From Escherichia coli (lineage in GTDB: Bacteria > Pseudomonadota > Gammaproteobacteria > Enterobacterales > Enterobacteriaceae): DNA of 64,000 bases. Location: NCBI RefSeq assembly GCF_003334355.1, contig NZ_QOWP01000020.1, one strand, 5' to 3'. This document shows, piece after piece, positions 4,892-35,073 of this stretch. The notes beneath the pieces were generated by a model. The model saw only the letters and a list, made by a program, of their open reading frames with translations. It ran no database searches and was not told the DNA's origin. Position 1 is the stretch's first letter. Every line of letters begins with the position of its first letter. The translations under genes were made by a program, and so were the position numbers.

Positions 4892-5968
4892 TTACCCCCT
4901 GAAGCCCGGCGGAATTTCGTTATCCGGTTCAGAAATATGATTCACACAACGCTGGTTGTTCGTGCCGCTTACCGGGAGCAACCAGGGGTTCTCAAAATTC
5001 CGGTCCGGTCCAAAAAACGTCGTCGCTCGCTGAACAAATTCCGTTCCCGTTTTCCCGGTAGCCGCCAAGTATCTTGCGTAACGCCTCACGCCATCCAGCA
5101 TGGCCTCTGGTGGCACCCCCTCGCGTAATCTGGCCTTCCAGGCACTGAAAGCGGATTTCTTCGGGTTTGCCCCAGCACGCAACGGGTACTCCCGCCAGAC
5201 CTGTTCGAACACATCCGGATAATCCACTCGTCCCACAGACTGCCCGGTGTTTTCCGGGACTACCCGATCGGCTTCCCGCTGAATGGCGGAATCGGCTTCA
5301 GGCTGCTGCAGTTGGTGTGATTGCTCCGCCCTTGCGGTCATCACCTGCTGCACAGCGCCCGAATCGGCTTTCAGCGCATACGCTGAATCGGCTTCCGGTG
5401 TCGTGCCTGCTGGCTGACCAAGATTGACGGTCTGAACATCCCCTGCCTGGTTCGTGGCGTTTTTTACGCCATGGACCATAGTGTTTTGATCTTCTTGATC
5501 TGTATCTTTATCTGTATCTTTATCTGTCGTGACTCGTCGTGACATGTGCGTGACATTTCGTGACGCGCCGTGACAATCGCCATTTTGTTCCCGCTTTCTT
5601 TCCCTCTCTCGCTGCGCCCTCTTGCGCTCTGCAGGAGATTTTGCGGTTTGCGAAATATTGCCGTTGTCCTCTTTAAGCACCTGGCGTTTTTCCCATCCAG
5701 TGATTAAATCACCATCAAGTACCCGCCCCTGCATCGTCTGCAAAATTGAATCAATTACCTCTTCTGTCACGTCGAGCGCACTTGCCAAATCTTCTGTCGT
5801 GACATCAATGTGACCTCGCGTGACATTTCGTGACGCGCTCACCAGGAGGTGGATATACACTGCCATCACTGTTGCAATTGGCTGTCCTGACACCCTGGCA
5901 ATTGTTCGCCACTTAGGGTCATTTGGCATGTCATGCCATAATCTGAGCCAGGCGTTAGCCATACTCAC
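4892..5968 (-). CDS. ydaU: YdaU-like prophage replication protein (DUF1376-like N-terminus, DnaT-like C-terminus, repeat-rich acidic linker)
   Basis: 358-aa ORF next to ydaT as in K-12 Rac; contains internal DNA direct repeats. Longer than the 285 aa I recall for K-12 YdaU, so treated as ydaU-like. Confidence 0.55.
   Translation of the reverse strand: MSMANAWLRLWHDMPNDPKWRTIARVSGQPIATVMAVYIHLLVSASRNVTRGHIDVTTEDLASALDVTEEVIDSILQTMQGRVLDGDLITGWEKRQVLKEDNGNISQTAKSPAERKRAQRERERKREQNGDCHGASRNVTHMSRRVTTDKDTDKDTDQEDQNTMVHGVKNATNQAGDVQTVNLGQPAGTTPEADSAYALKADSGAVQQVMTARAEQSHQLQQPEADSAIQREADRVVPENTGQSVGRVDYPDVFEQVWREYPLRAGANPKKSAFSAWKARLREGVPPEAMLDGVRRYARYLAATGKTGTEFVQRATTFFGPDRNFENPWLLPVSGTNNQRCVNHISEPDNEIPPGFRG
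5526..5576. repeat. Iteron-like cluster 1: five CGTGAC direct repeats at 10-11 bp spacing, preceded by an AT-rich TATCTT/TATCTG repeat tract (5489-5527)
   Basis: CGTGAC at 5528, 5538, 5549, 5559, 5569; read directly. Confidence 0.6.
5797..5836. repeat. Iteron-like cluster 2: four (C/T)GTGAC direct repeats at 10-11 bp spacing, plus an inverted GTCACG at 5767-5772
   Basis: Repeats at 5798, 5809, 5819, 5829; the 19-mer GCGTGACATTTCGTGACGCG is shared with cluster 1. Confidence 0.6.
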
Positions 5969-13027: not shown

Positions 13028-13222
13028 ATGAGATATGACAATGTTAAACCATGTCCATTTTGTGGTTGTCCATCAGTAACGGTGAAAGCCATTTCAGGAT
13101 ATTACCGAGCGAAGTGTAACGGATGCGAATCCCGAACCGGTTATGGTGGAAGTGAAAAAGAAGCACTCGAAAGATGGAATAAACGAACCACTGGAAATAA
13201 TAATGGAGGTGTTCATGTATAA
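13028..13222 (+). CDS. ralR: RalR (Lar), restriction alleviation protein and type I TA toxin
   Basis: 64-aa product MRYDNVKPCPFCGC... from an internal ATG of the track ORF. Confidence 0.8.
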   Translation: MRYDNVKPCPFCGCPSVTVKAISGYYRAKCNGCESRTGYGGSEKEALERWNKRTTGNNNGGVHV

Positions 13223-13424
13223 AATTACCGCCACTATTGAAAAGGAAGGTGGCACTCCTACTAACTGGACAAGATATTCAAAATCTAAACTAACGAAATC
13301 AGAATGCGAAAAAATGCTCTCAGGTAAAAAAGAAGCAGGCGTTTCCAGAGAGCAGAAAGTAAAACTGATAAATTTTAATTGCGAGAAACTTCAGTCCTCG
13401 AGAATTGCATTGTATTCAAATTAA
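13215..13424 (+). CDS. ydaC: YdaC
   Basis: 69-aa product MYKITATIEKEGG... with a GGAGG RBS; overlaps the ralR stop. Confidence 0.75.
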   Translation: MYKITATIEKEGGTPTNWTRYSKSKLTKSECEKMLSGKKEAGVSREQKVKLINFNCEKLQSSRIALYSN

Positions 13425-13502: not shown

Positions 13503-13718
13503 ATGGCACAAGTAATCTTTAATGAAGAGTGGATGGTTGAATACGGCCTGATGCTTCGCACTGGTCTGGGGGCCAGACAAATTGAAGCATACCGCCAGAA
13601 CTGTTGGGTGGAGGGCTTCCACTTCAAACGAGTATCTCCTTTAGGTAAGCCAGACAGCAAACGAGGGATTATCTGGTACAACTATCCAAAGATAAATCAG
13701 TTTATCAAAGACTCATGA
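13503..13718 (+). CDS. xisR: Rac excisionase XisR (YdaQ)
   Basis: 71-aa product [10 protein letters not shown]... immediately upstream of intR. Confidence 0.7.
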
Positions 13719-13719
13719 T

Positions 13720-14955
13720 ATGTCTAAATTACCAACAGGTGTCGAGATTAGAGGTAGATACATTCGCATCTGGTTCATGTTTCGAGGAAAACGATGTCGG
13801 GAAACATTAAAAGGCTGGGAGATTACAAACAGTAATATTAAAAAGGCCGGAAATTTAAGAGCGCTGATAGTTCATGAAATAAACTCCGGTGAATTTGAGT
13901 ATTTAAGACGTTTTCCCCAGTCCAGCACTGGGGCAAAAATGGTGACAACGAGAGTCATAAAAACGTTCGGAGAGCTTTGTGATATCTGGACAAAAATTAA
14001 AGAGACAGAGTTAACAACAAACACAATGAAGAAAACGAAATCACAATTAAAAACACTCAGAATAATAATTTGTGAAAGTACCCCGATATCACATATTCGT
14101 TATAGCGATATCTTAAACTACCGGAATGAACTGCTGCATGGAGAAACGCTTTACCTGGATAATCCAAGATCCAACAAAAAAGGAAGAACCGTGCGCACAG
14201 TTGATAACTATATCGCCCTGCTCTGTTCGCTGTTGCGTTTTGCGTATCAGTCGGGATTTATATCAACCAAACCATTTGAAGGAGTAAAAAAATTACAGCG
14301 AAACAGAATAAAGCCTGATCCGTTATCTAAAACAGAATTCAATGCATTAATGGAAAGTGAAAAAGGACAGAGCCAGAACTTGTGGAAATTTGCCGTTTAC
14401 TCAGGACTTCGTCACGGGGAACTGGCAGCTCTGGCGTGGGAGGATGTGGATCTCGAAAAGGGAATAGTGAATGTCAGAAGAAACCTGACGATACTTGATA
14501 TGTTCGGTCCCCCAAAAACAAATGCCGGGATCCGAACAGTAACACTACTGCAGCCTGCTCTTGAAGCACTGAAGGAGCAATACAAACTGACCGGGCATCA
14601 TCGCAAAAGCGAAATCACCTTTTATCATCGGGAGTACGGCAGAACCGAAAAGCAAAAACTGCATTTTGTTTTCATGCCCAGGGTGTGTAACGGAAAACAA
14701 AAACCTTATTACTCGGTAAGCAGTTTGGGGGCAAGGTGGAATGCAGCAGTAAAACGTGCTGGTATTCGCCGCCGTAATCCGTACCATACGCGGCATACTT
14801 TTGCCTGCTGGCTGTTGACGGCAGGAGCGAACCCGGCATTTATAGCCAGCCAAATGGGGCATGAAACTGCGCAGATGGTGTATGAAATTTACGGTATGTG
14901 GATTGATGACATGAACGACGAACAGATAGCCATGTTGAATGCGCGGTTATCGTAG
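13720..14955 (+). CDS. intR: Rac prophage tyrosine integrase IntR
   Basis: 411-aa ORF with the tyrosine recombinase C-terminal region (RHTFA...); adjacent to ttcA as in K-12. Ends with TAG. Confidence 0.9.
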   Translation: MSKLPTGVEIRGRYIRIWFMFRGKRCRETLKGWEITNSNIKKAGNLRALIVHEINSGEFEYLRRFPQSSTGAKMVTTRVIKTFGELCDIWTKIKETELTTNTMKKTKSQLKTLRIIICESTPISHIRYSDILNYRNELLHGETLYLDNPRSNKKGRTVRTVDNYIALLCSLLRFAYQSGFISTKPFEGVKKLQRNRIKPDPLSKTEFNALMESEKGQSQNLWKFAVYSGLRHGELAALAWEDVDLEKGIVNVRRNLTILDMFGPPKTNAGIRTVTLLQPALEALKEQYKLTGHHRKSEITFYHREYGRTEKQKLHFVFMPRVCNGKQKPYYSVSSLGARWNAAVKRAGIRRRNPYHTRHTFACWLLTAGANPAFIASQMGHETAQMVYEIYGMWIDDMNDEQIAMLNARLS

Positions 14956-15006
14956 TTGCAAAGTTTGCCCCCAATTTGCCCCATTTAGTACCAGAGAACT
15001 GAAATA

Positions 15007-15942
15007 ATGCAAGAAAATCAACAAATTACAAAGAAAGAACAATACAACCTGAACAAATTACAAAAACGTCTGCGTCGTAACGTGGGCGAAGCCATTGCTG
15101 ACTTCAATATGATTGAAGAAGGCGATCGCATCATGGTTTGCCTCTCCGGGGGTAAAGACAGCTATACCATGCTGGAGATTCTGCGCAATTTGCAGCAAAG
15201 CGCGCCAATCAATTTTTCGCTGGTGGCTGTTAACCTCGATCAAAAGCAACCGGGCTTCCCGGAACACGTTCTGCCCGAGTATCTTGAAAAGCTGGGCGTT
15301 GAGTACAAGATTGTTGAAGAGAATACTTACGGTATCGTGAAAGAGAAGATTCCAGAGGGCAAAACCACTTGCTCACTGTGTTCTCGCCTTCGTCGCGGTA
15401 TCCTTTATCGTACCGCAACGGAACTGGGGGCGACGAAGATCGCGTTGGGTCACCATCGTGACGATATCCTGCAAACGTTGTTCTTAAATATGTTCTACGG
15501 CGGTAAGATGAAAGGTATGCCTCCGAAACTGATGAGCGATGATGGCAAACATATCGTTATTCGTCCGCTGGCCTACTGCCGCGAGAAAGATATTCAGCGA
15601 TTTGCCGATGCAAAAGCGTTCCCGATTATTCCGTGCAACCTGTGCGGTTCACAGCCTAACCTGCAACGTCAGGTGATTGCTGACATGTTGCGTGACTGGG
15701 ATAAACGTTATCCAGGGCGTATCGAGACGATGTTCAGCGCGATGCAGAATGTGGTGCCGTCGCATCTGTGCGATACCAACCTGTTCGATTTCAAAGGCAT
15801 CACCCACGGTTCTGAAGTGGTTAACGGGGGTGATCTGGCGTTTGATCGCGAAGAGATCCCACTACAACCGGCGGGCTGGCAGCCAGAAGAAGATGAAAAT
15901 CAGTTGGATGAGTTACGGCTGAATGTGGTTGAAGTGAAATAA
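15007..15942 (+). CDS. ttcA: tRNA 2-thiocytidine(32) synthetase TtcA
   Basis: 311 aa; SGGKDS PP-loop motif and paired CxxC motifs. Confidence 0.9.
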
Positions 15943-17704: not shown

Positions 17705-17826
17705 AAAAAAAAGCCGACTCATCAAAGTCGGCGTCGTACGAATCAATTGTGCTATGCAGTAATTCAAAAAAGGAAGTAAGACAATATGGAGCGCAACGCC
17801 CATCGCTTGACGTTGCATTCACCTGC
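17705..17826 (-). ncRNA. fnrS: FnrS small RNA (FNR-activated)
   Basis: Reverse complement reads GCAGGTGAATGCAACGTCAAGCGATGGGCG...GCCGACTTTGATGAGTCGGCTTTTTTTT, matching recalled FnrS including its terminator. Confidence 0.85.
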
Positions 17827-21203: not shown

Positions 21204-21298
21204 ACCGGCGCAGAGGAGACAATGCCGGATTTAAGACGCGGATGCACTGCTGTGTGTACTGTAGAGTCTGGCGGATGTCGACAGACTCTATTTTTTTA
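21204..21298 (+). ncRNA. mcaS: McaS (IsrA) small RNA
   Basis: ACCGGCGCAGAGGAGACAATGCCGGATTTAAGACGCGGATGCACTGCTGTGTGTACTGTAGAGTCTGGCGGATGTCGACAGACTCTATTTTTTT, matching recalled McaS with its terminator; lies in the abgR-smrA intergenic region. Confidence 0.8.
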
Positions 21299-21305
21299 TG
21301 CAGTT

Positions 21306-32526: not shown

Positions 32527-32862
32527 AAGTTTCCCTCTAACCGACATTAAAATTGATGCGTAATTATTTGTTTCGCCTTAAAGAAATGCAAACAACTTCC
32601 ATCAAAAAAGTGACAAAGGAAGCATCAAATGTTTTAAGTATCAATATATCAAATCAGATTTAGTGTAAATAATAGTCTCCAAAATGCGGTAAAGCACATA
32701 GAACTCCGAACACTACGTTCGGGCTTCGCACGTTCAAACCCGTTTTCGGTATCATAATCAGCATCTGTCGCCATTGTACGAAGAATAAAAAATGACCAAA
32801 ACGTTGAAAGGAACTGAGAATACGTTAAGAGAAGAATTAAATTAATGTATCAGCAAGTAGTG

Positions 32863-34890: not shown

Positions 34891-35073
34891 ATGAAAAATG
34901 TACTGATTCTTGGTGCTGGCGGTCAGATAGCCCGCCATGTGATTAATCAACTGGCAGATAAGCAAACCATTAAACAAACTTTATTTGCCCGTCAGCCAGC
35001 AAAAATCCACAAACCCTATCCAACTAATAAAATGCAAACAACTTCCGGCAAAAAAGTGATACAAGATCGATGA
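34891..35073 (+). pseudogene. Short ORF resembling the N-terminal Rossmann (GAGGQIA) fragment of an NAD(P)-binding protein; likely gene remnant (ymjC-like)
   Basis: 60 aa, MKNVLILGAGGQIARHVINQLADKQ..., terminates after about 60 codons. Confidence 0.4.

Follow-up and report, generated by a model that had tools for sequence, protein, structure and literature searches.

The two copies of TTTGCCCC located between intR and ttcA in Escherichia coli are predicted with good confidence to be the arm-type sites P'1 and P'2 of IntR, the integrase of the cryptic prophage Rac. The pair lies in phage DNA outside of the crossover core, copies of the motif are present in both attachment-site arms, IntR contains an arm-binding domain, an IHF site accompanies the pair, and the arrangement is conserved in the integrase family.

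The analysed DNA, referred to as the window, is a 64-kb stretch which is 100% identical to E. coli K-12 strain ER1709 and spans the int end of Rac. The following features are relevant.

13503..13718, plus strand: xisR (ydaQ), the Rac excisionase (annotation; Liu 2015, PMC4632033)
13720..14955, plus strand: intR, tyrosine integrase, annotated as intR in K-12
14956-15006: the 51-bp intR-ttcA gap, between the intR stop codon TAG (14953-14955) and the ttcA ATG at 15007
14964..14972, plus strand: the TTTGCCCC(C) copy farther from the core, a predicted IntR arm-type site (P'2) located 11 bp before P'1
14975..14982, plus strand: core-proximal TTTGCCCC copy, predicted IntR arm-type site P'1 (named by the lambda convention)
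15007..15942, plus strand: ttcA, the host gene with the Rac insertion
15007..15030, plus strand: start codon of ttcA with codons 2-8, supplied by the phage and copying the native 5' end imperfectly
15016..15028, plus strand: match to the IHF consensus AATCAACAAATTA (WATCAANNNNTTR), located by pattern search in the stretch that separates the arm pair from the core, and corresponding to lambda H'
15031..15056, plus strand: 26-bp block AAGAAAGAACAATACAACCTGAACAA, identical in attL, attR and attB, covering ttcA codons 9-17; the core

Sequence and frequency of the repeats

The gap reads ttgcaaag-TTTGCCCCC-aa-TTTGCCCC-atttagtaccagagaactgaaata. The initial annotation had described TTTGCCCC as occurring twice, 11 bp apart, in this 51-bp gap, and the description was accurate: the copies occupy 14964-14971 and 14975-14982. 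The distance of 11 bp is measured from start to start, leaving 3 bp between the copies, or 2 bp past the fifth C.

The number of exact 8-mer pairs at offsets of 8-15 bp was 20 in the window, compared with a mean of 5.8 in shuffled sequences, and TTTGCCCC was counted 8 times over both strands of the 64 kb. Taken alone, the TTTGCCCC pair is within chance; it is its context that makes the pair highly non-random. TG[CT]CCC pairs with a spacing of 11-12 bp occurred once in the window (0.02 expected), at the gap, and twice in the 29-kb K-12 Rac region, one in each arm (about 0.02 expected). No further pairs of this kind were detected away from the arms in the window, the 29-kb K-12 Rac region, Gifsy-2 or BPP-1 (0.02-0.03 expected).

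The possibility that the repeats belong to an RNA element was rejected on the absence of an Rfam match and of a stable fold: no Rfam family overlapped the repeat site, and the predicted RNA fold of 14940-15060 was no better than those of shuffled sequences (z +0.89). The Rfam sRNA matches in the window, RalA (13221-13399, minus strand), FnrS (17709-17826, minus strand) and McaS (21204-21299, plus strand), are ordinary for this region of K-12.

Other repeats were observed in the window as well. The minus-strand ydaU, a replication-initiator-like gene, holds two clusters of short iterons at 5497-5575 and 5795-5838. In the first cluster, ATCTGTATCTTT repeats are followed by 5 copies of CGTGAC at a spacing of about 10 bp. 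The second cluster comprises 4 copies; among them is an exact 21-bp repeat, GCGTGACATTTCGTGACGCGC, that the first cluster contains as well. By analogy with the lambda ori inside gene O, this layout looks like the Rac replication origin (oriJ). Far outside the prophage, a 42-nt direct repeat of 83% identity was found at 32579-32620 and 35025-35066, 2.4 kb apart.

Location of the crossover core

The attL of the window, the attR of K-12 (L004, with the sequence taken from ER1709) and the attB of a Rac-free strain (L001) were aligned. The block at 15031-15056 was the only one identical across all three sites and, judged by this alignment, strand exchange must fall in this core region. The preceding positions 15014-15030 matched the host sequence at 14 of 17 positions. 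The phage-supplied 5' end of ttcA results in four amino-acid differences (Q2S, E3Q, Q6E, T8S), and the same four were reported by Liu et al. 2015 (PMC4632033). Rac attL has been placed within the ttcA coding region in that study and also in PMC8407004 and PMC11014345. Upon excision, 4 amino-acid changes were described in PMC4632033, and 2 changes with 3 base changes in PMC11014345; we read these reports as the same crossover with the deletion aligned differently. The 43-bp att of Prophage Tracer would correspond to 15014-15056.

The intR-ttcA junction was present in 2,908 of 5,426 complete E. coli genomes. In Rac-free genomes, the match with the window starts at about 15014 and continues only rightward. 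The sequence upstream of ttcA in the Rac-free attB is unrelated to the gap and contains no TTTGCCCC, and therefore the gap is prophage DNA; TTTGCCCC was missing from the host side of attR, too. The pair is situated 49-67 bp to the left of the 26-bp identity block; the junction lies 49-75 bp further right. No second att copy was found inside the window, and the attR of Rac lies about 9 kb beyond the window start.

The initial annotation had regarded the repeats as a candidate attL core and had named an alignment with Rac-free ttcA loci and with K-12 attL and attR as the way to check it. That alignment did not bear the proposal out: the gap repeats are absent from Rac-free loci, and the shared core is 15031-15056 inside ttcA. 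That the repeats lie near both the integrase gene and the end of the prophage is in accordance with their being, or including, the site where prophage and chromosome exchange strands. However, the only sequence common to attL, attR and attB is 15031-15056, with imperfect homology from 15014, TTTGCCCC is absent from both attB and the host side of attR, and the published attL is inside the ttcA coding region (PMC4632033, PMC11014345). Since TTTGCCCC does not occur in attB or on the host side of attR and the identity block is located elsewhere, TTTGCCCC is not the core, and the proposal that it is can be regarded as almost certainly wrong.

Several strains deviated from the standard arrangement at this locus. 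In E. coli ATCC 25922 (L095) and similar matches (H15-H21), the integrase gene is reduced to its final 231 bp, kept along with the arm pair and attL, which means that a decayed Rac remnant is fixed at ttcA in many strains. In strain SL112 (L002), intR is joined directly to zntB and the match with the window stops at 15046, inside the core; ttcA-dbpA appears to be deleted. The assembly of isolate 103 (L003) shows the attB region twice, with runs of N; probably this is an artefact, and the strain has lost Rac.

Motif copies in the reconstructed attP

The attP of Rac was reconstructed from the int-proximal arm in the window and the phage side of the K-12 attR. Counted from the start of the core, TTTGCCCC was found at -67, -56, +131, +142 and +161, and TTTGCCAC at +172. 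These 5 exact copies and 1 degenerate copy fall within about 250 bp, are all on one strand and form pairs with a period of 11 bp. The P' arm holds 2 copies, the P arm 3 exact copies and the degenerate TTTGCCAC, and the core is devoid of the motif.

The block of four P-arm sites was almost invariant in an E. coli attR variant with an identity of only 84%, in which the flanks of the block diverge. In several strains, the homology of the P arm ends directly after the fourth site. One strain carries an exact 11-bp insertion in the P arm which adds another TTTTTTGCCCC unit.

Two additional candidates for motif copies were rejected. In the P arm, an inverted near-copy, GGGCAAA, situated 5 bp beyond the core is probably due to chance, and it is not kept in the divergent E. 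coli variant. A minus-strand ATGCCCC in intR, about 97 bp before the stop codon, is explained by protein constraint, as it encodes the conserved QMGH motif.

The Pfam matches of IntR were Arm-DNA-bind_2 (PF12167) at residues 5-69 (E 4e-26) and Phage_integrase at residues 205-391. Arm sites are expected for IntR because of the N-terminal arm-binding domain PF12167. The IHF consensus at 15016-15028 coincides with a published GeF-seq peak of IHF, which was reported at Rac attL together with a consensus close to the start codon of ttcA (PMC8407004). In the P arm of K-12 attR (L004), a conserved sequence at about +71 to +87, counted from the start of the core, TTTTTCAATGTGTTA, differs from the IHF consensus by 1 mismatch. 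The P arm of 933W (L010 reverse complement, 57-71) has a conserved TTTTTCAATCTGTTA, also with 1 mismatch. TTTTTCAATGTGTTA and TTTTTCAATCTGTTA may represent a second IHF site in the far arm, as suggested by their similarity to the consensus.

Conservation of the motif pairs

In enterobacterial relatives which insert into ttcA and whose integrases are 65-71% identical to IntR, the intergenic DNA has diverged, and both sites keep their position and spacing. The P'1 position in these relatives reads TATGCCCC or CATGCCCC. The site pairs of four ttcA-inserting relatives are given below.

ttcA-inserting relative, site pair: TTTGCCCCttatATGCCCC
ttcA-inserting relative, site pair: TTTGCCCCtattATGCCCC
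ttcA-inserting relative, site pair: CTTGCCCActgcATGCCCC
ttcA-inserting relative, site pair: TTTGTCCCgtctATGCCCC

The TG(C/T)CCC pair is kept at the 3' end of int also in the case of integrases which are 26-44% identical to IntR and use different cores; every relative examined has it.

933W: P' pair GTGCCCCagacGTGCCCC; far arm, three pairs
Stx1_EH1995: P' pair GTGTCCCatacATGCCCC; far arm GTGTCCCattgATGCCCC
Stx2a_1447: P' pair GTGTCCCatgtATGCCCC; far arm ATGTCCCgtacATGCCCC
Klebsiella phage 2 LV-2017: P' pair TTTGCCCCacccATGCCCC; far arm, none found at the record start
Gifsy-2: P' pair TATGCCCCatcaCTGCCCC; far arm TTTGCCCCatccATGCCCC
Bordetella BPP-1: P' pair ATTTGCCCCaaATTCGTCCC; far arm ATTTGTCCCaagATTTGTCCC

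The far arms of 933W, Stx1_EH1995, Stx2a_1447, Gifsy-2 and BPP-1 contain 1-3 pairs about 117-135 bp beyond the core. The site variants agree between the two arms of one phage, as with the GTGTCCC...ATGCCCC that Stx1_EH1995 has in each of its arms. In the five reconstructed attPs, TGyCCC was the sole multi-copy motif common to both arms. A scan of 80 IMG/VR loci, most of which ended at the int stop codon, gave downstream sequence for five.

In the distant relatives, the P' pair is situated inside the C-terminal coding tail of int, with its two copies in different reading frames, indicating that the constraint is on DNA and not on protein. The position of the pair in the relatives bears on the idea that it is a functionless relic of a coding tail (..[AV]P.[MV]P[QH]..), left behind when Rac gained an earlier stop codon. 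IntR does end with ..ARLS exactly where its relatives run 13-21 residues further across the motif pair. Such an origin without function is nevertheless highly improbable, considering that the two copies occupy different frames in the relatives, that non-coding copies of the motif are present in every readable far arm, and that the pair is kept in the non-coding DNA of Rac-type relatives at 65-100% identity, where the neighbouring bases diverge.

Excisionase binding

Conservation alone does not identify the protein which reads the motif, because the excisionases of these phages are also homologous. The main competing reading is that the repeats are binding sites of XisR, the recombination directionality factor, instead of those of the integrase: Rac, 933W, Gifsy-2 and BPP-1 have homologous Xis proteins that are inherited together with the integrase, tandem direct repeats are common among excisionase sites, and an attR fragment was shifted by XisR (PMC4632033). 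The primers of the published EMSA (PMC4632033) were mapped here, resulting in +26 to +316 for the AttM fragment and -98 to +195 for AttR. AttM was not shifted by XisR (PMC4632033) although it holds all four P-arm TTTGCCCC/TTTGCCAC sites; therefore, XisR does not recognise the motif on its own, and the published gel shift of AttM, which has only the far-arm sites, argues against excisionase binding. Moreover, the motif is present in both arms, as required of the sites of an arm-binding integrase, and it is the only repeat that they share. Binding of XisR to the repeats is for these reasons considered very unlikely.

As XisR shifts the fragment -98 to +195 and not +26 to +316, its own determinant must sit within -98 to +47 of the core start (K-12 attR, L004 minus strand), within or adjacent to the core or the remaining host part of ttcA. 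The Xis of lambda binds deep in the P arm, and the determinant of XisR is not there.

Transcription of ttcA

Besides an attachment site, the initial annotation had considered the ttcA promoter. The former holds in a broad sense, the pair being in the predicted P' arm of attL; the latter was not supported, as a scan of 14500-15200 revealed no sigma-70 consensus promoter (-35/-10 hexamers at 16-18 bp). The same scan found no intrinsic terminator between intR and ttcA.

A role of the repeats in a phage-supplied promoter or operator of ttcA, with the native promoter displaced to attR by Rac, would be compatible with their position 25-43 bp upstream of the ttcA ATG, with Rac having substituted its own DNA for the 5' end of native ttcA and the region before it, and with the preservation of the pair in all the ttcA-inserting relatives examined. 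In addition to the lack of a sigma-70-like hexamer pair, this is opposed by the motif pairs in the far arm, which does not point towards the start of any gene, and by those within the int coding sequence of phages integrated at wrbA, tRNA-His and other loci. Read-through from intR, with no terminator on the way, would be a simpler source of ttcA transcripts. The promoter or operator function is judged very unlikely. In Rac lysogens, ttcA is probably transcribed by read-through from intR, the native promoter having been left at attR. A secondary effect of bound IntR on the expression of ttcA is possible.

Discussion

We infer the actual binding of IntR and the bridging geometry as follows. The N-terminal arm-binding domain of IntR would occupy the two P' copies of TTTGCCCC, and the core-binding and catalytic domains would be placed on the 26-bp core, which lies in ttcA at a distance of about 60 bp. 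A bend introduced by IHF at the intervening consensus would allow a single integrase molecule to bridge the arm and the core. In the prophage, the complex on the P' pair would be the attL complex needed for excision, and in the circular phage the P' pair and the four P-arm copies would together give rise to the integrative complex. In K-12, the pair may have a second, regulatory role just upstream of ttcA.

In the Landy model of lambda, the Int arm-type sites P'1-P'3 and the H' IHF site are arranged in attL in the order P'3-P'1, H', core. Rac is similar to lambda in that the int-adjacent arm has direct repeats in tandem with a period of about one helical turn, an IHF site precedes the core, the other arm carries the motif again at a distance of 100-150 bp, and the integrase has a separate N-terminal arm-binding domain. 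The systems differ in the motif, which is TTTG(C/T)CCC in Rac and C/AAGTCACTAT in lambda, and in the number of P' sites, two in Rac and three in lambda; the P arm of Rac consists of two pairs. The arm-binding domain of IntR is PF12167 whereas that of the lambda type is PF09003. Unlike in lambda, the core of Rac lies in a protein-coding gene for which the phage supplies a replacement 5' end, and the arm sites of Rac are predicted ones.

The IntBPP-1 subgroup of tyrosine recombinases has been defined by the DUF3596/PF12167 arm-binding domain (Smyshlyaev et al. 2021, PMC8138268). IntR belongs to this subgroup because it carries PF12167, the defining domain, and it is 26-44% identical to the named examples from BPP-1, an Stx2a phage and Gifsy-2. 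PMC8138268 classifies proteins, terms its examples 'putative integrases' and defines no arm sites; the shared layout of TG(C/T)CCC pairs in the subgroup originates from the present comparisons and not from that work. The nearest solved structures for the catalytic and core-binding domains of IntR, as judged by sequence (E about 1e-7), were those of the Tn916/Tn1549 integrases (6emy/6emz). These enzymes are heterobivalent and use arm sites, as does IntR in the proposed model, but the solved chains are without an arm-binding domain matching that of IntR and their arm-site sequences are unrelated.

In the searchable literature, with older subscription papers outside its reach, no binding, footprinting or mutational data were found for IntR or its integrase subgroup, and no description of the arm-type sites of Rac, IntR, 933W or the DUF3596 integrases was found there. 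Arm-type sites as such are a textbook element; what is apparently new is the sequence of the Rac sites and the TG(C/T)CCC-pair layout across the PF12167 subgroup. A more general proposal, that TTTG(C/T)CCC pairs 11 bp apart form an arm-site code shared by the whole DUF3596/IntBPP-1 subgroup, from BPP-1 to Rac, Gifsy-2 and the Stx phages, and combined with varying cores, is tentative and at present doubtful.

The results correct the position of the Rac attL core and provide a testable map of the Rac attachment site with P'2, P'1, the IHF site, the core and four far-arm sites. They also offer the first proposed arm-site consensus for a subgroup which includes the integrases of Shiga-toxin phages and Salmonella Gifsy-2, none having been defined in the searchable literature. 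The advance is in detail and not in concept. The map can be used for the exact delimitation of prophages, for the design of minimal attP substrates and for asking about excision interference between related prophages.

If the shared code is true, the integrases of co-resident prophages could occupy one another's arm sites, for instance in O157:H7, which has Rac-like and several 933W-like elements. Such occupancy would allow cross-talk, helping or disturbing Shiga-toxin phages in their excision and integration. The expression of ttcA might also be modulated in Rac lysogens, by IntR occupying the DNA directly ahead of the gene.
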